Source: a virus
Taxonomy: Duplodnaviria > Heunggongvirae > Uroviricota > Caudoviricetes
Strand: one strand, 5' to 3'
IMG/VR virus record: IMGVR_UViG_2681813223_000024
DNA: 19,623 nucleotides
Each line of letters begins with the position of its first letter. The stretch's first letter is position 1. This document shows, in pieces, positions 1,222 to 19,623 of the stretch. The notes beneath the pieces were generated by a model that ran no database searches, had not been told where the DNA came from, and saw nothing but the letters and a program-made list of their open reading frames with translations. A program made the translations under genes and the position numbers.

Positions 1222-1508
1222 AAATAACCGTCCTTTCTCCAGATCTCTTGTGTGCGAAAAACACCTTCTGCATGCATCAGGCGCAATTCTTCTTTGGTGT
1301 AATCGCTGGTTTTTACTCTCCCGTCGATTAAATCGTGGCATGAGTTACAGGCAATCGCTGCCTGCATATCGTGTGGCTTTATCGCTGTTCCGCACGTTCC
1401 CGCCAGCCTGTAATGCGCCAGCACAGAGGTTTCGGGATTGTGATTGCAGTAGCCAGGGATTCTGATCTGGCATATCTGGCCTTTAGCCGCTTTACGTAAA
1501 TTCACCAT
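1218..1508 (-). CDS. DUF1364 / YbcO-like nin-region protein (putative nuclease), 96 aa
   Basis: Protein MVNLRKAAKGQICQIRIPGYCNHNPETSVLAHYRL..IACNSCHD aligns by eye with the recalled DLP12 YbcO pattern (RKAARG.ECQVRIPGVCNGNPETSVLAH...IAC..CHD). ATGA overlaps at both ends. Confidence 0.7.
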   Translation of the reverse strand: MVNLRKAAKGQICQIRIPGYCNHNPETSVLAHYRLAGTCGTAIKPHDMQAAIACNSCHDLIDGRVKTSDYTKEELRLMHAEGVFRTQEIWRKDGYL

Positions 1509-2107
1509 TACGCAAACTCCAGTAGTTGTGCGGCCACATTTTCAACTTCCTCCTGAGAGGAGAATTTACGGAACAGAATCCAGTTCCACAGCACATTCAG
1601 TACAGATTTATAAACCTGCTGAAACTCGACTTCGTCCATATTCGCAAAAGCGATGGATTTTGCCCGACGCCCACGGCTACCGTCCGGATAAATATGCTCG
1701 GTGTAAAATCCGGCCTGAATGGTTACCCACTCGCGGAAAGCCTCAAACGACTTTAGCAACGCCGTATCCCGGGTTCTACGAGTCGCAACGGTGTTAAGGT
1801 ATTGCTCTGCGGCATCACTCAGGGCTGGCGTGTGTTCCCGACCAACTGATTCGCACAGGTAATCAACGAAACCAGACAGCAGTTCTCGTTCGCGAGGCGT
1901 GATCGCCCCACCGACCGGAGTCCAGTAATCGAATCCCAGTTGCAGGAGTTTGAAAAAACGCTTGTGGAATGCGTAGTTACGCACACGCTTAAAATCTGCG
2001 TGTATCCACTCACCTATTTTGATTTGATGCAGAAAATCGCAACTCTCCGGCGTCGCCGGGAGAAGTAAACCAGAAGAAGTTTGTTTGACCAGTTGTATAT
2101 GCGCCAT
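1508..2107 (-). CDS. nin-region protein, probably DUF1367 family (199 aa)
   Basis: Intact 199-aa ORF with a purine-rich stretch upstream of the ATG; its stop overlaps the next gene start. Family name is from memory of lambdoid prophage neighbours of YbcO-like genes. Confidence 0.55.
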   Translation of the reverse strand: MAHIQLVKQTSSGLLLPATPESCDFLHQIKIGEWIHADFKRVRNYAFHKRFFKLLQLGFDYWTPVGGAITPRERELLSGFVDYLCESVGREHTPALSDAAEQYLNTVATRRTRDTALLKSFEAFREWVTIQAGFYTEHIYPDGSRGRRAKSIAFANMDEVEFQQVYKSVLNVLWNWILFRKFSSQEEVENVAAQLLEFA

Positions 2108-2526
2108 TTCTCAATCTCTCGATGGCGCAGTGCAGCAGATGCCAGTTGTTCAAGCTAGCACGCAAATTGTAAACCAGAATGCCAGGAAAAAACAAAACCC
2201 GCCGAAGCTGGTTGTGTGCGGTTGCGTTGAAGTCTCCTAGCCAAAGAGTAGCGGTGACCACTCCCCGCCGATAATCTTAGTTGTTTAATTTCGTAAGCTA
2301 ACTAGGCTAAAAGCTCTCTGTTGTCTGCCTGTTGTACAATTAACAAAATGAACAACGAACTAGATATACCAACGCCAGAATGGTGCAACAAATCCCAAAC
2401 AACACAGCAATGCAACAATAACATATGTTATTTTCCTCTCACGGGATTCAGTCCTGAATTCTCATAAAGCTAATCTTTTTTTAAAAACATACTGTTAGAT
2501 CACATGCACTTTCTTTCTTAACATCG

Positions 2527-2554
2527 TTGACTTCGCATGCGAAGCGTTTAAAAT
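2527..2554 (+). promoter_or_regulatory. Sigma70-like promoter candidate for the GHKL operon with a palindrome in the spacer
   Basis: TTGACT at 2527..2532, 16-nt spacer, TAAAAT at 2549..2554, about 50 nt upstream of the ATG at 2607. The spacer contains the perfect 14-bp palindrome CTTCGCATGCGAAG (2531..2544). An A/T tract TTTTTTTAAAAA lies upstream. Confidence 0.5.
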
Positions 2555-2606
2555 CAACAATTTGCACTTAAGGTATTTATTTTCCCAAACACATAGAGAG
2601 TAAATT

Positions 2607-3998
2607 ATGACTGAGAACACGACTCCAACAGCAGACTTTAGTCCTAGTAAAAGATTTTTTGTAAGTATGCTAACTCGAGATATCGACTTAAACGATGCCA
2701 TACTTGATCTGCTTGATAACTGCGTCGATGGGGCTTTACGTACAATAAAAGACACAAAAAAAACTTCAAAACCATATGAAGGATTTTATGCGAAACTTAC
2801 GATTAATAAAGATGTCTTTATTATAGAAGACAATTGCGGAGGTATCCCTAAAAGCTTCCGAGAATATGCTTTTAAAATGGGACGACCCCATCAAAAAGAA
2901 GAAGAAAATGAAGGCACCGTTGGCGTCTATGGTATTGGTATGAAAAGAGCCATTTTTAAAATGGGTAGAGATTGCTCAATACAATCGAATAATCCCGATG
3001 GCGCATTCACTGTAGATATAACACCTGATTGGATCGATGGTGATGGTTGGAAAATACCGATGCACGAGAGTGACTATGATAACAAAAATCCAACAGGCAC
3101 AACTATAGAGATAAAAAAACTCCATTCTAATGTGGCACAAAAATTTAATGAGAGCACATATCTTACTGATCTCTTTTTACAGATAAAACACTCATTGTCA
3201 TTTATTATTCAAAAAGGATTTAAAATAGAATTAAATGGAGTTGTTGTTGAACATAATCCGATTAACATCATAACTGATCATTCTAAAATAGAACCATACA
3301 TATATAAAGCTAAAATAGACGATGTTGATATCGATTTAGTTGTTGGCTTCTATAAAAATTTAGAAGATGACAATGATGATGTTTTAGAAAAAAGGAGTTC
3401 TGATGATGCTGGATGGACTGTCATTTGCAATGACCGCGTTGTTCTATATTGTGATAAGACACATCTCACAGGTTGGGGCTTTGCTAATGTACCAAGGTTT
3501 CATACCCAATTTATAGCAATTTCTGGGGTTGTTCGCTTTACCAGTAAAAACCCAGAAAAATTACCAATAACAACAACGAAACGAGGTGTCGATCTTAGTT
3601 CTACATTGTACAATGATGTACGAAATAAAATGATTGAAGGGATGATGCATTTTATTCGATTCACCAATCAGTGGAAAGGTGAGCATCTTGAAGAAGGGAA
3701 AAAATTACTTAAGTCAGCTCAGTCACATGAAGCTCAATCTTTATTTGAAATTACCCCACAATCAACTCCAGAAGATAAAAAAAATAACTGGTCCAACCCT
3801 AATAGAAACAAAAATGAGTGGCGATATACACCTAAGCTGCCTACCCCAGTAAAAAAAAGCTCTACTGTACGAATAATCTTCACCAGAGAGAAAGAAGATG
3901 TTAAAATTTTATCTAAATATTTCTTTGGACATGAAGATGCTAGCGCTTCTGATGTGGGGATGCAATGCTTTGATACGGTGATTGAAGAGGTGAAGTGA
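2607..3998 (+). CDS. GHKL / Bergerat-fold ATPase (MutL/MORC/Hsp90-type ATP-binding domain) with C-terminal extension, 463 aa
   Basis: N-terminal region shows the ordered GHKL motifs: DLLDNCVDGA (motif I, ExxxNxxDA type), IEDNCGGI (motif II, DxGxG type), GVYGIGMKRA (motif III, GxxGxG), PTGTTIEI (motif IV, TGT). Purine-rich SD (agagag) 6 nt before the ATG. Confidence 0.85.
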   Translation: MTENTTPTADFSPSKRFFVSMLTRDIDLNDAILDLLDNCVDGALRTIKDTKKTSKPYEGFYAKLTINKDVFIIEDNCGGIPKSFREYAFKMGRPHQKEEENEGTVGVYGIGMKRAIFKMGRDCSIQSNNPDGAFTVDITPDWIDGDGWKIPMHESDYDNKNPTGTTIEIKKLHSNVAQKFNESTYLTDLFLQIKHSLSFIIQKGFKIELNGVVVEHNPINIITDHSKIEPYIYKAKIDDVDIDLVVGFYKNLEDDNDDVLEKRSSDDAGWTVICNDRVVLYCDKTHLTGWGFANVPRFHTQFIAISGVVRFTSKNPEKLPITTTKRGVDLSSTLYNDVRNKMIEGMMHFIRFTNQWKGEHLEEGKKLLKSAQSHEAQSLFEITPQSTPEDKKNNWSNPNRNKNEWRYTPKLPTPVKKSSTVRIIFTREKEDVKILSKYFFGHEDASASDVGMQCFDTVIEEVK

Positions 3999-4987
3999 TG
4001 TCTGGACAATACATTCCCTATCACTTAAGGCATAATAAGTCTATTGATAGAGAGATTTTTCTCGAAAGCCTAAACCTCTTAAGCAAAAGACTAAATATTC
4101 AAGAATATACATATATAGGTTTTGGTGGTCCGATGCTTGAAGATTTTAGAATCATGCATAATCGTATCGCTCTTTCTGATATGATTTCTCTCGAAGAACA
4201 AGAGTCTACTCACATCAGACAAAAATATAATTTGCCTTATAATTGTATTGATTGTAAGCTAATATCAGCTCATGACTTTATTCTTGATTATAGTTTTTCT
4301 AAACCATCAATAACATGGTTAGACTATGCCTCCCCGAAAAAAATACAAACGGATCTAGATGATATACACTTACTAAGTACTAAAGTAAGCTCTTTTGATA
4401 TTTTGAAGGTCACCTTCCCCATAAATCCTAGTTCTTATTACCAACGTAGAGTTGGAGAAAGTTTAGATATTTTTAAAGAAGCTTTTATTAATTCATTAAA
4501 ATCATTGCTTGGGAAAAAGTATCTTGATTTTAATCTTCAGATATCAAATGCAGATCTTTCAGATCGTAAGATTAAAGCTCTTTTAATACGAATTATTACA
4601 AACGCTTTTAGATCAGCAATAGAACGTGGTCTTTCAGGACGTAAGGATAAGATTCAGTATTACCCATTATCCTTAAATCAATATAATGATGGCAGTCATA
4701 CCATGTTGACAATATCAGGTTTTTTCTCCTCAGAACAAGAATATATAGAGTTATCTAAGGCATGCGACCTTTCTAACTGGCAATTTTATTCAACAAATTG
4801 GGAAGACGTGCAAGAAATAGCAATACCAACACTAACAATTAAAGAAAAGATAAATTTAGATAGTAAACTGCCTGATAAAGAAGCATATCAGGCAGCCGCT
4901 GAAGAGTTCTCTTTAAACGAAAATGAACGGGATAACTATTATAAATACTATAGGTTATACCCTAACTTCCAAAGAATTATGGTTTAA
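3998..4987 (+). CDS. Uncharacterised protein, translationally coupled partner of the GHKL ATPase (329 aa)
   Basis: ATG at 3998 shares its A with the upstream TGA; AGGTGA lies 4 nt upstream. An in-frame GTG at 3995 is the alternative start used in the ORF track. Long uninterrupted ORF in the same AT-rich context. No catalytic motif recognisable by eye. Confidence 0.75.
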   Translation: MSGQYIPYHLRHNKSIDREIFLESLNLLSKRLNIQEYTYIGFGGPMLEDFRIMHNRIALSDMISLEEQESTHIRQKYNLPYNCIDCKLISAHDFILDYSFSKPSITWLDYASPKKIQTDLDDIHLLSTKVSSFDILKVTFPINPSSYYQRRVGESLDIFKEAFINSLKSLLGKKYLDFNLQISNADLSDRKIKALLIRIITNAFRSAIERGLSGRKDKIQYYPLSLNQYNDGSHTMLTISGFFSSEQEYIELSKACDLSNWQFYSTNWEDVQEIAIPTLTIKEKINLDSKLPDKEAYQAAAEEFSLNENERDNYYKYYRLYPNFQRIMV

Positions 4988-6106
4988 ATATTCGGGCTGT
5001 ACTCTTTTATTTAATAAATTGTACAGCCCCTTTAATATATATTCAGCAACTATTGGTGACACGCTATTTCCTATTTGTCTGAAACTATGCCATTTAGTTA
5101 CATGAAAGCGAAACCAATCAGGGAAGCCTTGTAATCTAGCAGCTTCTCTTGGTGTAATCACTCTTGGATGATAAGGGTGGATCGGCCTGACGGCTTGAAA
5201 GCTTCCTTTATCTCTAGCGGTTCCCGCCCTTAAAGTCGGGCAAAAACCATTTGGATCTAATCTTGTAGATCTTGAAATTTTATCAGTTTCCCCAAAAGAT
5301 AAGGAAGCATAACGCTCTTGGACGATTTTGCTATGTAATGTTCCGGTACATCCAGATATGATATTATTTTTTAACTTAGCGATCGATTCTGTATCACCAA
5401 CATTCCGAGGGATCTGCCCCCATAATTTTTCATAAAATCCCCCTTTTCGATCTTTTTTAATTGTTCGCCAACTCTCAGAGTCTGATTGCCAATTGGCATC
5501 GATAATATCTGGTAATCCATACAAAGCATCTTTTACAGTAACCGGATCAATCATTTTAGGCATAAATACTTCATCTGAAATATCAAGCTTCAATGATTTT
5601 TTTACACCGATAAAAAAATATCTAGTTCGAATAGTTGGAGCACCATAATCAGATGCTTTTACCTTGATGGGATCAAGAATATCATAATCACCGCTAACCA
5701 AATTAAATGCTTTATTTCTAATGCCAGAATATTTCTCTTGCATAATACCTGGAACATTTTCTGCCAAAAAGAATAATGGCTGTAATTCTGATACTAAACG
5801 GTAGAAATGCATGTAAAGCTGATTCCTGCTATCATCAGGATTCCCCTTGCCTATTGAACTAAATCCTTGGCACGGAGGACCGCCAATAATACCATCTATG
5901 GGCATATCGTTTTTAAAAAAACCCTTAATTATTTCTGCATTTAGTAAAGAAACATCTTCTTGGACGTGCAAACTTCTTGGAAAATTAATTGCGTGAGTAT
6001 TAATAGCATGTTGATCAATTTCAACTGCCATTTTAACATCAAATCCAGCACGTGCAGCACCAAGACTTAGACCTCCAACGCCAGAAAACAAATCTATTAC
6101 ATTCAT
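4955..6106 (-). CDS. DNA (cytosine-5)-methyltransferase (383 aa)
   Basis: Canonical C5-MTase motifs in order: DLFSGVGG (motif I, AdoMet binding), GGPPCQGFS (motif IV, catalytic Cys), ENV (motif VI), QIGNSV near the C-terminus, with a long variable region between. 3' end overlaps the partner gene convergently by 33 bp. Confidence 0.9.
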   Translation of the reverse strand: MNVIDLFSGVGGLSLGAARAGFDVKMAVEIDQHAINTHAINFPRSLHVQEDVSLLNAEIIKGFFKNDMPIDGIIGGPPCQGFSSIGKGNPDDSRNQLYMHFYRLVSELQPLFFLAENVPGIMQEKYSGIRNKAFNLVSGDYDILDPIKVKASDYGAPTIRTRYFFIGVKKSLKLDISDEVFMPKMIDPVTVKDALYGLPDIIDANWQSDSESWRTIKKDRKGGFYEKLWGQIPRNVGDTESIAKLKNNIISGCTGTLHSKIVQERYASLSFGETDKISRSTRLDPNGFCPTLRAGTARDKGSFQAVRPIHPYHPRVITPREAARLQGFPDWFRFHVTKWHSFRQIGNSVSPIVAEYILKGLYNLLNKRVQPEYLNHNSLEVRV

Positions 6107-6138
6107 ATAGTTGCAACGTCTCTTATTAGTTTCTATGT

Positions 6139-6147
6139 ATTATAACA
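6139..6147 (-). promoter_or_regulatory. Extended -10 promoter element candidate for the methyltransferase
   Basis: Minus strand reads TGTTATAAT (TGn + TATAAT) about 30 nt upstream of the MTase ATG. Confidence 0.4.
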
Positions 6148-6368
6148 CAACTGTTCTTGATGTTTTAACCCCATAAGATAACCTCATAAAGGCTATCCCT
6201 TGAAAATACCGGATCGCATAAATTTAATCTTTCAAAACTACTTGTCTATTAATCGAGCAATTTAAGGTTGTTTTAGTCATGTCGATACCGACATAGTTAA
6301 CTAAACCCATTTCATCGTCCAACAAATGGGGGTAATACACTTTGATTTATAGTCGGGTGGGTTTTTCT

Positions 6369-6404
6369 CTATCTGCCTTTGGTGTTCATGCCCAAGGCAG
6401 ATAG
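6369..6404. repeat. Imperfect inverted repeat (about 13-bp arms, 9-nt spacer)
   Basis: CTATCTGCCTTTGG ... CCAAGGCAGATAG, preceded by GGGTTTTTCT on the plus strand. No U-tract follows the hairpin on either strand, so it is not a canonical terminator. Confidence 0.4.
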
Positions 6405-6457
6405 CCTCAAGCACCCGCAGCAATTCTACTTAACTATCCTTTTCCCGCAAATCGTTT

Positions 6458-6541
6458 TTATCCCCAGCGGCAAATCGAATACACAACCAGCGCCACCGCC
6501 ATCGCAATTCCTACCGTTGTGAATGCTTCAGGCCAGGTCAT
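6458..6541 (-). CDS. Small hydrophobic peptide, 27 aa (MTWPEAFTTVGIAMAVALVVYSICRWG), candidate single-pass membrane peptide
   Basis: ATG overlaps the stop of the upstream gene as ATGA; GGAGGA lies 9 nt upstream; hydrophobic core of about 17 residues. Below the ORF-track length cutoff. Confidence 0.45.
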   Translation of the reverse strand: MTWPEAFTTVGIAMAVALVVYSICRWG

Positions 6542-10663: not shown

Positions 10664-10707
10664 TTTAACTGATACCGAACAAAACAGTTCGGTACGATTA
10701 ATTTCAA

Positions 10708-11130
10708 TCAATGCACTACGACAGAATCGCTAGGAGAACCGCCGCCGCTGAAATGTGCTTTACGGTAAACGGCCTGGACTGCATCATCATGCGCATCAAT
10801 TGCCGTACTCAGTGCATCCTGTGCCGCCAGTAATGCACGGCGTTCCAGGGTATCGAAGATGCAGAGTCGGTGACGCAGCTCGCGAGGAAGAATTGCCAGA
10901 ACCGCAGGGATCAGTTTCTGAATTTTTTCCCTTTGCGCATTCGTTTCACCTTTCAACCAACGATGATAGATATTCTGCTGATTGTTCCAGTCCTTGCCTG
11001 GTACCAGGGGCAATTCGCCGCCCCCCTGGCGCAGATATTCTTCAGTAATTGCGTTAGCGACCCACGCCTGCCCTTTTTCGGCTGCCAGGGCTAACAACAC
11101 TGATTCGATGTGCTCATGCTTGATTTTCAT
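10708..11130 (-). CDS. ydaT: YdaT-like protein of the cro-ydaT early-right operon (140 aa)
   Basis: Protein MKIKHEHIESVLLALAAEKGQAWVANAITEEYLRQGG... matches my recollection of Rac YdaT; its start overlaps the Cro-like stop as ATGA. Confidence 0.75.
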   Translation of the reverse strand: MKIKHEHIESVLLALAAEKGQAWVANAITEEYLRQGGGELPLVPGKDWNNQQNIYHRWLKGETNAQREKIQKLIPAVLAILPRELRHRLCIFDTLERRALLAAQDALSTAIDAHDDAVQAVYRKAHFSGGGSPSDSVVVH

Positions 11131-11381
11131 GAATCAACTCCCATCAGCTTTTTCGTAGTAGTTTTATTTCTGCCAATAGTTAAAATTGCATCGGCAGAAA
11201 ATAATCCGTTTGATGCATGAGCGATTTTTTCAGCGTAATTTGTTTCGCCGGTATATTCTGTGCGAGGCAATTTACCGTTATCCATCCATTTGTAGATTGC
11301 TCTTTGGCTGACACCACAAACGTCGGCCACAACAGAAACGCGAACAGTTTTGATTACATCTTCAAGTGTTTTCTGGTTCAT
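11127..11381 (-). CDS. Cro/YdaS-like HTH regulator (84 aa)
   Basis: Internal start at MNQKTLEDV (ATG 11381) with GAGGG 5-6 nt upstream; HTH-like segment VSVVADVCGVSQRAIYKWM; divergent from the CI-like gene. Confidence 0.65.
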   Translation of the reverse strand: MNQKTLEDVIKTVRVSVVADVCGVSQRAIYKWMDNGKLPRTEYTGETNYAEKIAHASNGLFSADAILTIGRNKTTTKKLMGVDS

Positions 11382-11460
11382 ATCACCCTCACAATGTGAA
11401 CTTTGAGTACATGCTATAACAGAACTGACAGTACATTCAAGAGCGAATATCATTGAACTT
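11382..11460. promoter_or_regulatory. Divergent immunity-region control region (OR-like) between the cro-like and CI-like genes
   Basis: 79-bp intergenic region with two AGTACAT motifs (11406..11412 and 11430..11437) and two TGAACTT motifs (11398..11404, 11454..11460). The CI-like ATG has no SD, consistent with a leaderless transcript. Confidence 0.45.
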
Positions 11461-11880
11461 ATGGTTCATGAAGATAAAGCGCGTAAAGAGTTCGCCAGTA
11501 GGCTTGCGCTAGCCTGTGAAAACGCTGGTTATGAACAACATGGAAGGCAGGCAGAAATTGCCCGTCGAATGAAATTAACACCAAAAGCGGTTAGCAAATG
11601 GTTTAATGGTGAAACAATTCCTCGCCGAGAGAAATTAAGGGAATTAGCAACACTCATTGGAACAACACCAACCTATCTTTTGGGAGAGGATACAGAAGAA
11701 AGTGGACAGATACGTTTCTATCAGGAGTTAAATCCAAGACAAAAAATCATCATTGACCTTCTGGACGAGCTCCCTGACAGTGAGACAGATGAACTTTTAA
11801 AAACTCTTGAGGAGAAAAAACAGAAGTACAATGCAATTTACGAAGAGTTAGCACGAAAGAAAAAACAAAAAGCCTCTTAA
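11461..11880 (+). CDS. XRE-family HTH repressor, CI/RacR-like (139 aa)
   Basis: HTH segment RQAEIARRMKLTPKAVSKWFNGETIP; divergent from the Cro-like gene and co-oriented with the early-left operon. Confidence 0.7.
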   Translation: MVHEDKARKEFASRLALACENAGYEQHGRQAEIARRMKLTPKAVSKWFNGETIPRREKLRELATLIGTTPTYLLGEDTEESGQIRFYQELNPRQKIIIDLLDELPDSETDELLKTLEEKKQKYNAIYEELARKKKQKAS

Positions 11881-11957
11881 ACCAGCATAAATCCGGTAGC
11901 GTCCCCCTCCGGGTTTGTGCTTCACTTTATCCCGTCTCATTTTTTTATACATAAAAT

Positions 11958-11999
11958 GTACTTAAAGTACTTTACAATGATGAACACAAAGTACATTAT
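11958..11999 (+). promoter_or_regulatory. OL-like operator/promoter region downstream of the CI-like gene
   Basis: Contains GTACTT, the perfect palindrome AAAGTACTTT (11964..11973) and AAAGTACATT (11988..11997), sharing the AGTACAT core seen in the OR-like region. TTTACA at 11971..11976 with a weak -10 about 17 nt downstream. Confidence 0.35.
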
Positions 12000-12167
12000 A
12001 TACCTACCAACCCACCCCGCCCCACAGAACGCCGGGCAATACTTCGAGTTACCAGGCAGTGGTCAGGGGTTAAGTAGCCAGCCCGAGGCGTATGAACATG
12101 ACGGCGGGATTCAAATTTTGCAGTGCAGCAGTTAGTTCCGCCACCCGGCGTTAAGGGGATAGATAAG

Positions 12168-12302
12168 ATGGTGCATTACGAAGTAGTTCAGTATTTGATG
12201 GATTGTTGCGGTATCACTTACAACCAGGCTGTGCAGGCTTTACGCAGCAACGACTGGGATCTCTGGCAGGCAGAAGTCGCTATACGTAGCAACAAGATGT
12301 GA
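12168..12302 (+). CDS. ydaG: Small Rac-type protein (44 aa, MVHYEVVQYLMDCCGITYNQAVQALRSNDWDLWQAEVAIRSNKM)
   Basis: ATG preceded by AAGGGGA; sequence matches my recollection of Rac YdaG; below the ORF-track cutoff. Confidence 0.55.
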   Translation: MVHYEVVQYLMDCCGITYNQAVQALRSNDWDLWQAEVAIRSNKM

Positions 12303-12312
12303 GATTCGCAAA

Positions 12313-12468
12313 ATGCAAAAAATCGACCTCGGCAACAACGAATCCCTGGTGTGCGGCGTGTTCCCCAACCAGGATGGAACGTTCACTGCCATGACGTATA
12401 CCAAAAGCAAAACATTTAAAACCGAAACTGGTGCGCGCCGATGGTTGGAGAAGCACACAGTAAGCTAA
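12313..12468 (+). CDS. ydaF: Small Rac-type protein (51 aa, MQKIDLGNNESLVCGVFPNQDGTFTAMTYTKSKTFKTETGARRWLEKHTVS)
   Basis: ATG 10 nt after the ydaG stop; 3' end overlaps the sieB 3' end by 4 nt on the opposite strand; recalled as Rac YdaF. Confidence 0.55.
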   Translation: MQKIDLGNNESLVCGVFPNQDGTFTAMTYTKSKTFKTETGARRWLEKHTVS

Positions 12469-12953
12469 CGATTAAAACGTCTACTCCTGCTGTTCCAGAA
12501 TAACTTCATAAAATGGGAGTATTTTTCGGTGACGAGATAATAAGAACAGTTTGCGCTATCACTCTGATGTTGAATGATGCCCTTCCGTTCTAATTTTTTC
12601 ATAACCGGGTTACGGCAAGGAGAAGTGATAATAAGATTTCCTGTTTTAAGGAAATCTTTAAATACAGCGATTTCTTTCTCAGATAAACGAAGCAATACTC
12701 GTTGCTCTGGTAGTAATGAATAATGCTTTTGAATATGTGCTCGCAATCTTGAGAAGGAAATGGCGACCACGAAAGAAAAGGCAAAAACGATAATCTGAAA
12801 GAGCCAAGGTATTTCAGTATAAGCATTGAATGCGACAGTAAACTCTTTCGGTATCAGCCAGAGAGTGAGACCAAAAATGATAATCGTATACATAAGTCTT
12901 TCGAGTGGCTCGTTAGCAAAAAGTTTCAACAATGGAGTAAATACATCCAACAT
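12465..12953 (-). CDS. sieB: Superinfection exclusion protein B (162 aa)
   Basis: Start at MLDVFTPLLKLFANEPLERLMYTIIIFGLTLWLIP (ATG 12953) with GAGAG 8 nt upstream; hydrophobic N-terminal half; opposite orientation to the early-left operon, as in lambda and Rac. Confidence 0.8.
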   Translation of the reverse strand: MLDVFTPLLKLFANEPLERLMYTIIIFGLTLWLIPKEFTVAFNAYTEIPWLFQIIVFAFSFVVAISFSRLRAHIQKHYSLLPEQRVLLRLSEKEIAVFKDFLKTGNLIITSPCRNPVMKKLERKGIIQHQSDSANCSYYLVTEKYSHFMKLFWNSRSRRFNR

Positions 12954-13171
12954 ATCAATAACTCTCAACTGTAAGGGTATTGAAATGTTAACACAAGCTC
13001 TCGCTGTAGGGGTATAGCCGAGACCACCGAAGCCCGGAGGTGGTGAAATAAAACCGGGCACAACACGAAGGCGCATTTCCGATATCCATAAAGAGTCGGT
13101 CTTGTCTGTTAAATTTAAATGGTGGGAGTGCGCCTCCGGTTGTAAATAACGACATTGCTGTGTGTAGTCCT

Positions 13172-13220
13172 GGCGGCATCAGTTTTTTTCTTGAAGTTCG
13201 GCTGATGTCCGCCCTTTTTA
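13172..13220 (+). terminator. Terminator-like hairpin between sieB and kilR (tL-like candidate)
   Basis: GGCGGCATCAG, about 19-nt loop, CTGATGTCCGCC, then CTTTTTA. Stem of 11 bp with one bulge; the large loop lowers confidence. Confidence 0.3.
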
Positions 13221-13394
13221 AAGTGAATTTTGTGATGCGATGAATGCGGCTAAGCGCACGTGGCACAGTTAAAAGTCATGTTAGTCCTTATTGGTTTGGG
13301 TGGGAAAGCCGACTGTAATTGTTAACTGGTTGCAGTCACCTGGAGGCACCAGGCACCGCATCAACAAAGTTCATTTGTAAAAATGGAGATAATT

Positions 13395-13616
13395 ATGATT
13401 GCACATCACTTCGGAACTGATGAAATACCACGTCAGTGTGTGACTCCTGGCGATTATGTTCTTCATGAAGGCCGGACATATATTGCCTCGGCAAACAATA
13501 TTAAAAAGCGAAAACTATATATTCGTAACCTGACCACAAAAACATGCATTACTGACCGCATGATTAAAGTCTTCCTCGGTCGTGATGGTTTACCTGTAAA
13601 GGCGGAGTCATGGTGA
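13395..13616 (+). CDS. kilR: Rac-type killing protein KilR (FtsZ-directed division inhibitor in K-12), 73 aa
   Basis: Start at [32 protein letters not shown] with GGAG 6 nt upstream; sequence matches recalled KilR. Confidence 0.8.
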
Positions 13617-13786
13617 TGACTAAGAAAATAAAATGTGCTTACCACCTTTGCAAAAAAGACGTTGAAGAAAGCAAAGCTATTGAAAGAATGCTTCACTTCA
13701 TGCACGGGATTTTATCAAAAGACGAACCGAGAAAATATTGCAGTGAAGCTTGTGCCGAAAAAGACCAGATGGCACATGAACTTTAA
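13616..13786 (+). CDS. ydaE: Small four-cysteine zinc-ribbon-like protein (56 aa)
   Basis: ATG overlaps the kilR stop as ATGA; [14 protein letters not shown]...YCSEACAEK has two Cys pairs; recalled as Rac YdaE; below the ORF-track cutoff. Confidence 0.6.
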   Translation: MTKKIKCAYHLCKKDVEESKAIERMLHFMHGILSKDEPRKYCSEACAEKDQMAHEL

Positions 13787-13860
13787 TTAATTGACTATTC
13801 GAAACTGAATTTATGCCAGAAATGGCAGGTATTCGCTCAACCTTAATTAAGGAGAAAAAC

Positions 13861-14136
13861 ATGATTACCAATTATGAAGCCACTGTTGTAACTACCGATG
13901 ACATTGTTCACGAGGTGAATCTGGAAGGAAAGCGCATTGGCTACGTAATTAAAACAGAAAATAAAGAAACCCCATTCACTGTGGTTGATATCGATGGTCC
14001 ATCAGGCAACGTAAAAACACTTGATGAAGGTGTCAAAAAAATGTGCCTGGTGCATATCGGAAAGAATCTGCCCACAGAAAAAAAAGCCGAATTTCTGGCA
14101 ACTCTAATTGCAATGAAATTAAAAGGTGAAATCTGA
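13861..14136 (+). CDS. racC: RacC protein (91 aa)
   Basis: Start at MITNYEATVVTTDD with AGGAG 7 nt upstream; matches recalled RacC. Confidence 0.8.
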   Translation: MITNYEATVVTTDDIVHEVNLEGKRIGYVIKTENKETPFTVVDIDGPSGNVKTLDEGVKKMCLVHIGKNLPTEKKAEFLATLIAMKLKGEI

Positions 14137-14237
14137 AAGAAATAGCCTGCGTATGGCGCAGGCTATGAACAGTGTGTATCCGGCAAGATCATTCACTGAA
14201 CAAAACGAATTTTAATCTGAGTTGAGGTTAAAAAACA

Positions 14238-16838
14238 ATGAGCACAAAACCACTCTTCCTGTTACGGAAAGCGAAAAAATCATCCGGTGAACCTGACGTC
14301 GTCCTGTGGGCAAGCAACGATTTTGAATCGACCTGTGCCACTCTGGACTACCTGATCGTTAAGTCAGGTAAAAAACTGAGCAGCTATTTTAAAGCTGTTG
14401 CCACGAATTTTCCTGTCGTTAATGACCTGCCCGCTGAAGGTGAGATCGATTTTACCTGGAGTGAACGCTATCAACTCAGCAAAGACTCCATGACATGGGA
14501 ACTAAAACCGGGAGCAGCACCAGACAACGCTCACTATCAAGGCAATACCAACGTCAACGGCGAAGACATGACTGAGATTGAGGAGAATATGCTACTCCCA
14601 ATTTCTGGCCAGGAACTGCCCATTCGTTGGCTTGCTCAACACGGCAGCGAAAAACCGGTAACGCACGTTTCACGCGACGGACTCCAGGCATTACACATTG
14701 CTCGGGCTGAAGAACTACCGGCTGTTACTGCCCTGGCTGTTTCCCACAAAACCAGCCTGCTCGACCCGCTGGAAATTCGCGAACTCCACAAACTGGTTCG
14801 TGACACTGACAAAGTTTTCCCTAATCCTGGTAATTCAAACCTGGGACTGATAACTGCTTTTTTCGAAGCATACCTGAACGCTGACTACACCGATCGAGGA
14901 CTGCTGACAAAAGAGTGGATGAAGGGTAATCGTGTTTCACACATCACTCGCACGGCTTCCGGTGCTAATGCTGGCGGCGGAAACCTCACCGATCGCGGCG
15001 AAGGTTTCGTACACGATCTGACGTCACTGGCGCGCGACGTAGCCACTGGCGTACTGGCCCGTTCAATGGATCTGGACATCTATAACCTTCATCCGGCACA
15101 CGCTAAACGCATTGAGGAAATTATCGCTGAAAATAAACCGCCCTTTTCTGTTTTCCGCGACAAATTCATCACCATGCCTGGCGGGCTGGATTATTCCCGC
15201 GCCATCGTGGTTGCGTCCGTAAAAGAAGCACCAATTGGGATCGAGGTCATCCCCGCGCACGTCACTGAATATCTGAACAAAGTACTGACTGAAACCGATC
15301 ATGCCAACCCTGATCCGGAAATCGTGGATATTGCCTGCGGTCGCTCCTCTGCCCCGATGCCGCAGCGAGTAACAGAAGAAGGAAAACAGGATGATGAAGA
15401 AAAACCGCAACCATCTGGAACAACGGCAGTTGAACAGGGAGAGGCTGAAACAATGGAACCGGACGCAACTGAACATCATCAGGACACGCAGCCGCTGGAT
15501 GCTCAGTCACAGGTAAATTCTGTTGATGCGAAATATCAGGAACTGCGGGCAGAACTCCATGAAGCCCGGAAAAACATTCCATCAAAAAATCCTGTCGATG
15601 CCGATAAATTGCTTGCTGCATCACGTGGTGAATTTGTTGACGGAATTAGCGACCCGAACGATCCGAAATGGGTAAAGGGGATCCAGACTCGCGATTGTGT
15701 GTACCAGAACCAGCCAGAAACGGAAAAAACCAGCCCGGATATGAATCAACCTGAGCCAGTAGTGCAACAGGAACCGGAAATAGCCTGCAATGCCTGCGGC
15801 CAGACTGGCGGGGATAACTGCCCTGACTGTGGTGCGGTGATGGGCGACGCAACATACCAGGAAACATTCGATGAAGAGAGTCAGGTTGAAGCTAAGGAAA
15901 ATGATCCGGAGGAAATGGAAGGCGCTGAACATCCGCACAATGAGAATGCTGGCAGCGATCCGCATCGCGATTGCAGTGATGAAACTGGCGAAGTCGCAGA
16001 TCCCGTAATCGTAGAAGACATAGAGCCAGGTATTTATTACGGAATTTCGAATGAGAATTACCACGCGGGTCCCGGTGTCAGTAAGTCTCAGCTCGATGAC
16101 ATTGCTGATACTCCGGCACTGTATTTGTGGCGTAAAAATGCCCCCGTGGACACCACAAAGACAAAAACGCTCGATTTAGGAACCGCTTTCCACTGCCGGG
16201 TACTTGAGCCGGAAGAATTCAGTAACCGCTTTATCGTAGCACCTGAATTTAACCGCCGGACAAACTCCGGAAAAGAAGAAGAGAAAGCGTTTCTGAGGGA
16301 ATGCGCAAGCACAGGAAAAACGGTTATCACTGCCGAAGAAGGCCGGAAAATTGAACTCATGTATCAGAGCGTTATGGCTTTGCCGCTGGGGCAATGGCTT
16401 GTTGAAAGCGCCGGACACGCTGAATCATCAATTTACTGGGAAGATCCTGAAACAGCAATTTTGTGTCGGTGCCGTCCGGACAAAATTATCCCTGAATTTC
16501 ACTGGATCATGGACGTGAAAACTACGGCGGATATTCAACGATTCAAAACCGCTTATTACGACTACCGCTATCACGTTCAGGATGCATTCTACAGTGACGG
16601 TTATGAAGCACAGTTTGGAGTGCAGCCAACTTTCGTTTTTCTGGTTGCCAGCACAACTATTGAATGCGGACGTTATCCGGTTGAAATTTTCATGATGGGC
16701 GAAGAAGCAAAACTGGCAGGTCAGCTGGAATATCACCGCAATCTGCGAACCCTGGCTGACTGCCTCAATACCGATGAATGGCCAGCTATTAAGACGTTAT
16801 CACTGCCCCGCTGGGCTAAGGAATATGCAAATGACTAA
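14238..16838 (+). CDS. recE: Exodeoxyribonuclease VIII, full-length (866 aa)
   Basis: 866-aa ORF with an acidic low-complexity middle region and C-terminal nuclease domain, followed by an overlapping recT; matches recalled K-12 RecE length and N-terminus. Confidence 0.93.
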
Positions 16839-17640
16839 GCAACCACCAATCGCAAAAGCCGATCTGCAAAAAACTCAGGGAAACCGTGCACCAGCAGCAA
16901 TTAAAAATAACGACGTGATTAGTTTTATTAACCAGCCATCAATGAAAGAGCAACTGGCAGCAGCTCTTCCACGCCATATGACGGCTGAACGTATGATCCG
17001 TATCGCCACCACAGAAATTCGTAAAGTTCCGGCGTTAGGAAACTGTGACACTATGAGTTTTGTCAGTGCAATCGTACAGTGTTCACAGCTCGGACTTGAG
17101 CCCGGTAGCGCCCTCGGTCATGCATATTTACTGCCTTTTGGTAATAAAAACGAAAAGAGCGGTAAAAAAAACGTTCAGCTAATCATTGGCTATCGAGGCA
17201 TGATTGATCTGGCTCGCCGTTCAGGTCAAATCGCCAGCTTGTCAGCCCGTGTTGTCCGTGAAGGTGACGAGTTTAATTTCGAATTTGGCCTTGATGAAAA
17301 GTTAATACACCGCCCAGGAGAAAACGAAGATGCCCCTGTTACCCACGTCTATGCTGTCGCAAGACTGAAAGACGGAGGTACTCAGTTTGAAGTTATGACG
17401 CGCAAACAGATTGAGCTGGTGCGCAGCCAGAGTAAAGCTGGTAATAACGGGCCGTGGGTAACTCACTGGGAAGAAATGGCAAAGAAAACGGCTATTCGTC
17501 GCCTGTTCAAATATCTGCCCGTATCAATTGAGATCCAGCGTGCAGTATCAATGGATGAAAAGGAACCACTGACAATCGATCCTGCAGATTCCTCTGTATT
17601 AACCGGGGAATACAGTGTAATCGATAATTCAGAGGAATAA
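16831..17640 (+). CDS. recT: RecT single-strand annealing recombinase (269 aa)
   Basis: Start at [42 protein letters not shown] overlapping the recE stop by 8 nt; an ATG 6 nt upstream (MQMTKQ) is an alternative start. Confidence 0.93.
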
Positions 17641-17695
17641 TTCAGCCTGGCGGTGTAATGCACCGCCAACTTGAAATATTTTTATGAGAAAAATT

Positions 17696-17845
17696 ATGAG
17701 ATATGACAATGTTAAACCATGTCCATTTTGTGGTTGTCCATCAGTAACGGTGAAAGCCATTTCAGGATATTACCGAGCGAAGTGTAACGGATGCGAATCC
17801 CGAACCGGTTATGGTGGAAGTGAAAAAGAAGCACTCGAACGATGA
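17696..17845 (+). CDS. ralR: RalR/Lar-type restriction-alleviation toxin, apparently truncated to 49 aa by an in-frame TGA
   Basis: MRYDNVKPCPFCGCPSVTVKAISGYYRAKCNGCESRTGYGGSEKEALER then TGA at 17843..17845. The same frame continues NKRTTGNNNGGVHV to a TAA at 17888..17890, which matches the recalled 64-aa RalR C-terminus where Trp (TGG) stands in place of this stop. Confidence 0.6.
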   Translation: MRYDNVKPCPFCGCPSVTVKAISGYYRAKCNGCESRTGYGGSEKEALER

Positions 17846-17882
17846 AATAAACGAACCACTGGAAATAATAATGGAGGTGTTC

Positions 17883-18071
17883 ATGTATAAAATTACCGCC
17901 ACTATTGAAAAGGAAGGTGGCACTCCTACTAACTGGACAAGATATTCAAAATCTAAACTAACGAAATCAGAATGCGAAAAAATGCTCTCAGGTAAAAAAG
18001 AAGCAGGCGTTTCCAGAGAGCAGAAAGTAAAACTGATAAATTTTAATTGCGAGAAACTTCAGTCCTCGTGA
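17883..18071 (+). CDS. ydaC: Small Rac-type protein YdaC-like (62 aa)
   Basis: Start at MYKITATIEKEGG with GGAGGT 6 nt upstream; the ATG overlaps the position of the ancestral ralR stop. Confidence 0.65.
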   Translation: MYKITATIEKEGGTPTNWTRYSKSKLTKSECEKMLSGKKEAGVSREQKVKLINFNCEKLQSS

Positions 18072-18103
18072 ATTGCATTGTATTCAAATTAAAACTTCAT
18101 AGC

Positions 18104-18119
18104 TGATTATTAATAATCA
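18104..18119. repeat. Perfect 16-bp A/T-rich palindrome upstream of xis (TGATTATTAATAATCA)
   Basis: Self-complementary 16-mer about 50 nt upstream of the xis start. Confidence 0.35.
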
Positions 18120-18170
18120 ACATCGGGCGTCAATTTAAGTCTAACATTGGCGCCTGCCAGAGGTGATGCG

Positions 18171-18386
18171 ATGGCACAAGTAATCTTTAATGAAGAGTGG
18201 ATGGTTGAATACGGCCTGATGCTTCGCACTGGTCTGGGGGCCAGACAAATTGAAGCATACCGCCAGAACTGTTGGGTGGAAGGCTTCCACTTCAAACGAG
18301 TATCTCCTTTAGGGAAGCCAGACAGTAAGCGAGGGATTATCTGGTATAACTATCCAAAGATAAATCAGTTTATCAAAGACTCATGA
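18171..18386 (+). CDS. xisR: Excisionase-like protein (71 aa)
   Basis: Start at [35 protein letters not shown] with AGGTGA upstream; immediately before int; matches recalled Rac YdaQ/XisR. Confidence 0.8.
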
Positions 18387-18387
18387 T

Positions 18388-19623
18388 ATGTCTAAATTAC
18401 CAACAGGTGTCGAGATTCGAGGTAAATACATTCGCATCTGGTTCATGTTTCGAGGAAAACGATGTCGGGAAACATTGAAAGGCTGGGAGGTTACTAACAG
18501 TAACATTAAAAAAGCCGGGAATTTAAGAGCGTTGATAGTTCATGAAATCAATTCCGGTGAGTTTGAGTATTTAAGACGTTTTCCCCAGTCCAGCACTGGG
18601 GCAAAAATGGTGACAACGAGGGTCATAAAAACGTTCGGGGAGCTTTGTGATATCTGGACAAAAATTAAAGAAACAGAGTTAACAACAAACACAATGAAGA
18701 AAACGAAATCACAATTAAAAACACTCAGGATAATAATTTGTGAGAGTACTCCGATATCGCATATTCGTTATAGCGATATCTTAAACTACCGGAATGAACT
18801 GCTGCATGGAGAAACGCTTTACCTGGATAATCCAAGATCCAACAAAAAAGGAAGAACCGTGCGCACAGTTGATAACTATATCGCCCTGCTCTGTTCGTTG
18901 TTACGTTTTGCGTATCAGTCGGGATTTATATCAACCAAACCATTTGAAGGAGTAAAGAAATTACAGAGAAACAGAATAAAGCCTGACCCGTTATCTAAAA
19001 CAGAATTCAATGCATTAATGGAAAGTGAAAAAGGACAGAGCCAGAACTTGTGGAAATTTGCCGTATACTCCGGGCTTCGTCACGGGGAACTGGCTGCTCT
19101 GGCGTGGGAGGATGTGGATTTCGAGAAGGGAGTTGTGAATGTCAGAAGAAACCTGACGATACTGGATATGTTCGGTCCCCCAAAAACAAATGCGGGGATC
19201 CGGACGGTAACACTACTGCAGCCTGCTCTTGAAGCACTGAAGGAGCAATACAAACTGACCGGGCATCATCGCAAAAGCGAAATCACCTTTTATCATCGGG
19301 AGTACGGCAGAACCGAAAAGCAAAAACTGCATTTTGTTTTCATGCCCAGGGTGTGTAACGGAAAACAAAAACCTTATTACTCGGTAAGCAGTTTGGGGGC
19401 AAGGTGGAATGCAGCAGTAAAACGTGCTGGTATTCGCCGCCGTAATCCGTACCATACGCGGCATACTTTTGCCTGCTGGCTGTTGACGGCAGGAGCGAAC
19501 CCGGCATTTATAGCCAGCCAAATGGGGCATGAAACTGCGCAGATGGTGTATGAAATTTACGGTATGTGGATTGATGACATGAACGACGAACAGGTAGCCA
19601 TGTTGAATGCGCGGTTATCATAG
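18388..19623 (+). CDS. intR: Tyrosine-type site-specific integrase (411 aa)
   Basis: 411-aa ORF directly after xis, with a C-terminal catalytic region containing the R...HxxR...Y pattern (RHGELAAL, HTRHTFA, YEIYG); matches recalled Rac IntR. The window ends at its stop codon. Confidence 0.93.
   Translation: MSKLPTGVEIRGKYIRIWFMFRGKRCRETLKGWEVTNSNIKKAGNLRALIVHEINSGEFEYLRRFPQSSTGAKMVTTRVIKTFGELCDIWTKIKETELTTNTMKKTKSQLKTLRIIICESTPISHIRYSDILNYRNELLHGETLYLDNPRSNKKGRTVRTVDNYIALLCSLLRFAYQSGFISTKPFEGVKKLQRNRIKPDPLSKTEFNALMESEKGQSQNLWKFAVYSGLRHGELAALAWEDVDFEKGVVNVRRNLTILDMFGPPKTNAGIRTVTLLQPALEALKEQYKLTGHHRKSEITFYHREYGRTEKQKLHFVFMPRVCNGKQKPYYSVSSLGARWNAAVKRAGIRRRNPYHTRHTFACWLLTAGANPAFIASQMGHETAQMVYEIYGMWIDDMNDEQVAMLNARLS

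Follow-up and report, generated by a model that had tools for sequence, protein, structure and literature searches.

A methyltransferase-fold partner of a MORC-like ATPase, with a C5 cytosine methylase, forms a small mobile cassette carried by temperate phages

What does a gene do that begins inside the stop codon of an ATPase gene and whose product resembles, at first sight, no known enzyme? The question is raised by a viral DNA stretch of 19,623 nucleotides (Caudoviricetes; IMG/VR record IMGVR_UViG_2681813223_000024; hereafter the window), in which the gene for a 463-amino-acid ATPase is followed on the same strand by that of a 329-amino-acid partner. The initial annotation, made from the letters of the DNA, credited the partner with no recognisable motif, which is wrong: the protein matches Pfam family PF20553 over its full length, bears the RefSeq name 'O-methyltransferase' and carries the signature of class-I S-adenosyl-methionine (SAM) methyltransferases. 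The same annotation saw in it the most likely novel component of the locus, and this stands as far as function is concerned, but not for the family, which is present in Pfam and in PHROGs and has a recognisable enzyme fold. Overlooked altogether was a third member, a C5 cytosine methyltransferase encoded at 4955-6106. Here, we describe the three genes as a small mobile cassette, accessory cargo of temperate phages and other mobile DNA, and weigh what the cassette could be for. The relevant features are the following:

2607..3998, plus strand: MORC-like GHKL+S5 ATPase, 463 amino acids.
3985..4000, plus strand: translational coupling signal (AAGAGG Shine-Dalgarno sequence, 7-nt spacer, TGATG stop/start), read from the sequence, the overlapping or abutting layout being conserved across the family.
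3998..4987, plus strand: the feature under study, a 329-amino-acid partner with a class-I SAM-methyltransferase fold, PF20553.
4955..4987, no strand assigned: 33-bp overlap of the 3' ends of the convergent partner and C5 methylase genes, from the coordinates of their open reading frames (ORFs).
4955..6106, minus strand: C5 cytosine DNA methyltransferase, 383 amino acids (Pfam DNA_methylase, E=2.6e-61; PADLOC MTase_II, E=2e-98).

The partner ORF is open on the plus strand from an in-frame GTG (3995..4987); the ATG at 3998 is the start that PGAP/RefSeq uses at the identical locus, and homologues share the MSGG beginning that it yields. Since 329 codons are kept open in DNA of 31-33% GC and the translation matches a Pfam family at E=2e-89, this is not a chance frame. 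The upstream ORF (2607..3998, plus strand) ends with a TGA at 3996-3998, so that the ATPase stop and the partner ATG have a single base in common, the A at 3998 (gTGATGt), as the initial annotation had proposed; the Shine-Dalgarno sequence that it also ascribed to the partner is AAGAGG at 3985-3990, 7 nt before the ATG. The junction reads GAAGAGGTGAAGTGATGTCT.

To which family does the partner belong? In the match to PF20553 (Methyltransf_35, 'putative O-methyltransferase'), residues 1-328 align to positions 1-308 of a model of 309, above the gathering threshold with 300.4 bits against a cutoff of 27 bits, and PHROG 19983 is matched at E=1.7e-154. The Pfam domain is present in all 57 close homologue clusters. 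An exhaustive profile search collected 2,122 representatives of the family at 50% clustering, the 150 best-scoring of which are stand-alone proteins, nearly all of about 330 amino acids. Both PF20553 and PHROG 19983 are sequence models, the name being a guess and PHROGs giving the function as unknown; we found no paper in the literature that mentions PF20553 or Methyltransf_35. Searches of the PDB by sequence, with the partner itself and with a 35-sequence profile, gave no meaningful relative, and NCBIfam holds neither a model nor an equivalog for it, lending no support to a TcmP-type or other named family. The scans in Pfam, NCBIfam and PADLOC do agree with the initial annotation that HNH, PD-(D/E)xK, HEPN, Walker and transmembrane signatures are absent, and they place the ORF in no housekeeping family.

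Structure prediction, which had been suggested as a check, yields a class-I SAM-methyltransferase fold. In an AlphaFold2 model built on 35 homologues (predicted local distance difference test, pLDDT, 89.7; predicted template modelling score, pTM, 0.88), strands at 38-42, 61-66, 84-88, 104-109 and 135-141 are followed by a hairpin at 220-230/235-244, making a seven-stranded Rossmann-like sheet that ends in the strand 6-strand 7 hairpin; to this core are added a variable helical insert at about 144-212 and a C-terminal helical domain. The nearest folds are those of nucleic-acid base methyltransferases, namely the RsmD-like Rv2966c/HI0767, Trm1, RlmI/RlmO, RlmJ and METTL16, at 5-13% identity, and several small-molecule methyltransferases are also among the Foldseek matches. 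The partner differs from the base methyltransferases (RsmD-like and others) in its D-Y-x-x-P motif, its N-terminal segment, its helical insert, its C-terminal helical domain and its pairing with a GHKL protein.

In an alignment of 275 distinct relatives, whose identity to the window protein ranges from 25 to 100% with a median of 32%, strand 1 leads into a glycine-rich loop, G41-F-G43-G44-P45, that keeps G43 in 96% and G44 in 91%, and the acidic E66 at the end of strand 2 is kept in 97%. D109-Y110 at the end of strand 4 opens a motif, D-Y-x-x-P, that differs from the canonical (D/N)PP(F/Y); W107 and D109 are at 100%, and Y110 is at 90% at least in alignment A1. Also kept are Y8, R11, K14, R18, Y39, E48, D49, R74, Q75, T139, Y229, D231 and E283, and an N-terminal segment Y-H-L-R-x-N-K-x-x-x-R is conserved in the family. 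This residue pattern fits an enzyme that would still bind SAM and handle a phosphate-bearing, base-containing substrate, the invariant Arg/Lys and aromatic residues being compatible with the phosphate; as a pattern of sequence, it does not reveal which atom would be methylated. The partner is thus a class-I SAM-methyltransferase-fold protein of an existing, uncharacterised Pfam family. The product name 'O-methyltransferase', which PGAP/RefSeq gives it in 173 complete E. coli genomes, is a placeholder: the protein falls in no characterised O-methyltransferase family, and the 'O-' is unsupported because NCBIfam is empty and the nearest folds are RNA N- and C-methyltransferases.

Is the partner obligatorily tied to the ATPase? 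The initial annotation had expected the two proteins to be co-expressed, and the family strongly supports this. In 80 loci, obtained by a pattern scan with one genome per species and drawn from Proteobacteria, Cyanobacteria, Firmicutes, Verrucomicrobia, Chloroflexi, Latescibacteria and other phyla, an ATPase homologue lies immediately upstream of the partner on the same strand in 80/80 (truncated in L078, where the contig ends), so the pairing is kept in related loci. Among the 77 loci in which the distance is measurable, the two genes overlap by 4 nt in 46, and the gap is 6 nt or less in all but one. The matrices of sequence identity of the two proteins are also strongly correlated (Mantel r=0.79, p=0.001), showing, at the level of the sequences compared, that partner and ATPase co-evolve. 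Obligate co-expression of the partner with the ATPase is strongly supported. One locus has two pairs: L010 carries a second, divergent ATPase-partner pair (10664-13709, minus strand), whose partner is 23% identical and matches PF20553 at E=2.4e-74, on the other side of a shared C5 methylase.

The ATPase has a GHKL+S5 architecture with intact ATP-binding motifs and a helical C-terminus, in which a nuclease fold was looked for and no match was found. Its profile finds MORC3 as best match in the PDB, and that at E=0.036 only. MORC-type ATPases are DNA clamps. In all of 36 aligned homologues (36/36), residues 34-38, D-L-L-D-N, carry an invariant Asp where other GHKL ATPases have the catalytic Glu, and five cysteines are conserved (C39, C77, C274, C282 and C454). 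The window protein has the paraMORC2 motif ExxxH, as E-G-M-M-H; across the family this motif is not conserved, so that an assignment to paraMORC2 fails and no paraMORC subfamily can be given. Nine loci (L012, L013, L014, L017, L018, L022, L024, L030 and L034) carry a second, longer GHKL paralogue beside the C5 methylase, of 537-610 amino acids and 22-39% identity, in which Pfam sees only HATPase_c_3 and which has a C-terminal extension of about 150-200 amino acids.

The third gene of the cassette is a frequent but interchangeable neighbour. A C5 methylase is adjacent to the pair in about 68 of the 80 loci, in one of three placements: upstream in the same operon, downstream and convergent as in the window, or downstream and co-directional. 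The abutting convergent layout recurs in enterobacterial and Firmicutes loci. In the viral comparison set of 49 related IMG/VR contigs, the partner gene stands beside a C5 methylase in 49/49 and the ATPase is also seen in 48/49, L119 being cut at its 5' end. The window methylase is essentially identical to PDB chain 3g7u_A (E=1.3e-254), a solved structure that is functionally uncharacterised; its nearest characterised relative is M.HaeIII, across the catalytic N-terminal half only, and its PADLOC matches are MTase_II (best), DruM and DrmMII. Six loci from Nostocales and other cyanobacteria (L002, L004-L008) have the pair with no C5 methylase adjacent, four of them beside NADH dehydrogenase subunit genes.

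Beyond the methylase, Vsr is the only other recurrent neighbour (22/80 loci). Genes of HNH proteins occur in about 6-8 of the 80, counting cluster 4 in 6 loci and the HNH_2, HNH_5 and HNH matches among 148 flanking proteins; the remaining flanks hold mixed housekeeping or mobile-element genes and no biosynthetic ones. A search for a conserved nuclease or helicase cluster among the neighbours of the 80 loci found none. The operon of the second pair in L010 continues with a gene that weakly resembles HNH_5 (E=1.4e-4, short of the Pfam cutoff), which hints that some family members recruit an HNH nuclease.

Where the cassette sits bears on what it could be for. E. coli O157:H7 PA20 carries a prophage like that of the window, Rac-like, lambdoid and integrated at ttcA; the two are 99.99% identical over 19.1 kb. 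The cassette occupies a distinct segment of the window:

2157..6358, no strand assigned: cargo island, about 4.2 kb long and low in GC, at a variable site of the Rac-like lambdoid prophage, from GC content and the different cargo found elsewhere.
2527..2554, plus strand: sigma-70-like promoter candidate, TTGACT-16-TAAAAT, before the ATPase gene (10/12 matches).

GC content is 0.31-0.39 across 2501-6500 against 0.42-0.56 in the flanks, and the island lies between a DUF1367 (NinB-like) gene and the early genes, with the ATPase-partner operon oriented opposite to the surrounding phage genes. The DNA on either side (window 1300-2156 and from 6359) recurs in other E. coli prophages, where it encloses hokD or a doc-family toxin-antitoxin pair, and the site is therefore a variable cargo slot. 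The cassette is found in 173 of 5,426 complete E. coli genomes, O157:H7 and O111 strains among them, and always in the same island. The same lambdoid slot, from the DUF1367/NinB-like gene to the early genes, is seen in L133; in L132 (E. coli O111:H8 7-54 11A), IS1203 sits within a DUF4014 gene at a distance of about 1.3 kb, and all three cassette genes are intact. As to the promoter, a scan of the region counted 19 such sites against 17.4 +/- 4.8 in shuffled sequence, and it stays a candidate because this is no excess.

Other mobile elements carry the triad as well. In 23 loci (21 IMG/VR contigs with L015 and L020), all in P2-like prophages, it is placed between gpQ (portal) and gpA (replication), a locus described as a hotspot of anti-phage systems (Rousset et al.; PMC9122126), and in PfAC20, a Pf inovirus of Pseudomonas, the triad is found at the accessory end. 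A megablast search against sequenced phage genomes returned no copy of the cassette. Location in recognised hotspots, a generic trait of defence genes, is seen at gpQ-gpA in those 23 loci and in the lambdoid hokD/doc slot.

We consider it about an even bet (roughly 0.5) that the cassette is a methylation-linked, restriction-like anti-phage module. In such a module, the C5 methylase would mark resident DNA, the dimerising MORC-like ATPase would clamp DNA using ATP, and the partner would supply a SAM-dependent step, either a base-flipping inspection of DNA or the transfer of a methyl or other alkyl group onto nucleic acid. Interference would proceed with no dedicated nuclease in most loci and with a recruited HNH enzyme in some. 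The partner would then be the putative effector or sensor half of a defence-like cassette, a role made plausible by its context.

Precedents exist for several parts of this scheme. Iyer, Abhiman and Aravind (2008; PMC2292703) described MORC/paraMORC ATPases beside cytosine methylases and Vsr in restriction-modification-like operons. The window module resembles these systems in its GHKL+S5 ATPase, in the mostly cytosine-specific methylases and Vsr that stand beside it and in its laterally mobile DNA; those operons, however, also contain superfamily-II helicases and predicted nucleases, separate or fused, neither of which is present here, and a methyltransferase-fold partner is not one of their features. 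Compared with MORC/paraMORC operons, the ATPase and the methylase/Vsr neighbourhood thus agree, and the helicase and nuclease do not. A second likeness is to the module of HEF_HK (a GHKL protein), Response_reg_2 (CheY-like) and a C5 methylase, with Vsr and occasional HNH, reported by Bellieny-Rabelo et al. (2021; PMC8011034): there too, a HATPase_c_3 protein adjoins a small Rossmann-like partner and a C5 methylase, Vsr is frequent and HNH genes occur at times, but the window partner has a SAM-methyltransferase fold and not that of a CheY-like receiver. A Pfam scan at E<=1 lists neither PF19191 nor PF19192 for the ATPase or the partner. That a GHKL ATPase can truly take part in defence is shown by a GHKL-nuclease fusion of the paraMORC3/Shedu type, which protects against phage (PMC12137116).

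BREX offers a functional analogy only: it is described (PMC11842806) as a nuclease-free, methylation-based defence in which the SAM-using PglX/BrxX methyltransferase is needed for both interference and marking. There is no relationship in sequence or domains, and neither partner nor ATPase matches a BREX model in PADLOC; BREX has an N6-adenine methylase and six genes, whereas the window module has three, one of which is a separate C5 methylase. Type II restriction-modification systems, finally, are similarly compact mobile units with a C5 methylase, variable gene orientation that includes convergent overlap, and Vsr nearby. The window module differs from them in having no restriction endonuclease and in non-methylase genes that show no tracking of methylase specificity. 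Classical restriction-modification was accordingly rejected as a description: a cognate endonuclease is absent and the pairs sit beside divergent methylases.

Several observations weigh against a restriction-like function. Closely related pairs stand beside C5 methylases of different clades: between L003 and L028, the partners are 62% and the ATPases 66% identical while the methylases are 33% identical, and between L019 and L017 the values are 69%, 72% and 35%. No segment of partner or ATPase diverges disproportionately when the target-recognition region of the methylase is swapped; in the test for covariation with that region, the ratio of variable-insert to core identity was 0.68 vs 0.66 (p=0.39), and the C-terminal domain gave a marginal p=0.03 on pairs that are non-independent. 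Divergent methylases with no compensating divergence give no hint that sequence specificities are matched, as a classical restriction-modification pair would require; from these sequence comparisons, the pair seems tied to C5 methylation in general and not to one particular sequence. In the six cyanobacterial loci and a few others, moreover, the pair has no adjacent C5 methylase. Since no nuclease is conserved, 'restriction' would also be invoked with no identified activity to execute it, and the Asp that replaces the catalytic Glu in motif I of the ATPase may make hydrolysis slow. PADLOC v2 at E<=1 returns zero families for the ATPase and zero for the partner. The literature yielded no experiment on the cassette and no published description of it, and the reports of transposon-insertion sequencing and transcriptomes that were consulted gave no usable data on its genes.

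A possible, if doubtful, alternative is that the cassette performs no restriction of its own and that the partner is a second DNA or RNA modification enzyme, an active methyltransferase loaded or made processive by the ATPase clamp, which together with the C5 methylase would lay down a double epigenetic mark on the DNA of the prophage or its host, for anti-restriction (shielding it from foreign restriction systems) or for gene regulation. The near-invariance of cofactor and catalytic-type motifs in the 275 relatives is what an active enzyme would show, the closest folds (RsmD-like, Trm1, RlmJ, METTL16) act on base amino groups, no nuclease is present, and carriage by temperate phages fits an anti-restriction cargo.

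We find it unlikely that the module serves to limit 5-methylcytosine damage, the MutL/MORC-like ATPase and its partner helping to process the T:G mismatches that arise by deamination, with Vsr or in its place, and so cutting the mutational cost of the methylase. Vsr co-occurs with the pair and is not replaced by it, it is not obvious what a SAM-methyltransferase fold would do for mismatch processing, the cyanobacterial pairs have no adjacent methylase, and the P2 gpQ-gpA hotspot and the toxin-antitoxin cargo slots point to conflict functions instead.

Quite unlikely, in our view, is an abortive-infection effector that does not act on DNA, in which the ATPase would sense a phage cue, the partner would methylate ribosomal RNA (rRNA), transfer RNA (tRNA) or a nucleotide, growth would stop, and the C5 methylase would be a loosely linked passenger. 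The best structural matches of the partner are indeed rRNA and tRNA methyltransferases, its invariant basic residues R11, K14, R18 and R74 suggest a phosphate-bearing substrate, and the prophage hotspots are a consistent context; yet about 85% of loci have the methylase next to the pair, often with overlap or a shared operon, which is too tight a link for a passenger, and an ATPase of a type known for clamping DNA fits such a role poorly. That the partner is simply a small-molecule or housekeeping O-methyltransferase with no tie to the ATPase is very unlikely despite its database label and the small-molecule enzymes among its Foldseek matches, given the invariant coupling and co-evolution with the ATPase, the patchy mobile distribution (173/5,426 E. 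coli genomes, always in the same island), the lack of biosynthetic neighbours and the lack of an NCBIfam equivalog.

We tentatively put forward a more speculative reading, a nuclease-free immunity tied to 5-methylcytosine. Here, DNA whose C5 methylation is missing or different would be disabled by the joint action of a MORC-like clamp and a SAM-dependent methyltransferase-fold enzyme, through modification or topological trapping instead of cutting and independently of the sequence specificity of the methylase. Such a system could be the prokaryotic counterpart, and possibly the ancestor, of the MORC-DNA methylation silencing of invasive DNA in eukaryotes.

The remainder of the window is unexceptional for a prophage of this kind. 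By the PA20 annotation, positions 11461-19623 are those of a typical Rac-like prophage, with a repressor region, a ydaT-family toxin, sieB, kilR, ralR and xisR; recE lies at 14238-16838, recT at 16774-17640, and an integrase ORF (18388-19623) runs off the end. A run of 65 N at 436-500 stands where PA20 has about 260 bp with tRNA-Arg and part of tRNA-Ile, and ARAGORN finds no tRNA in the window because this run replaces the tRNA segment.

The cassette is common, being spread over many phyla and carried by P2-like, lambdoid and Pf prophages, and the literature reports neither a function nor a mechanism for it. Should it prove to be a defence system, it would represent a new class that combines a MORC-type ATPase with a methyltransferase-fold enzyme and dispenses with a nuclease, and the long-proposed bacterial origin of the connection between MORC proteins and DNA methylation would become directly testable. 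If instead it limits the damage caused by 5-methylcytosine, very-short-patch repair would gain a new accessory. Either way, the RefSeq name 'O-methyltransferase' is a placeholder that rests on no evidence.

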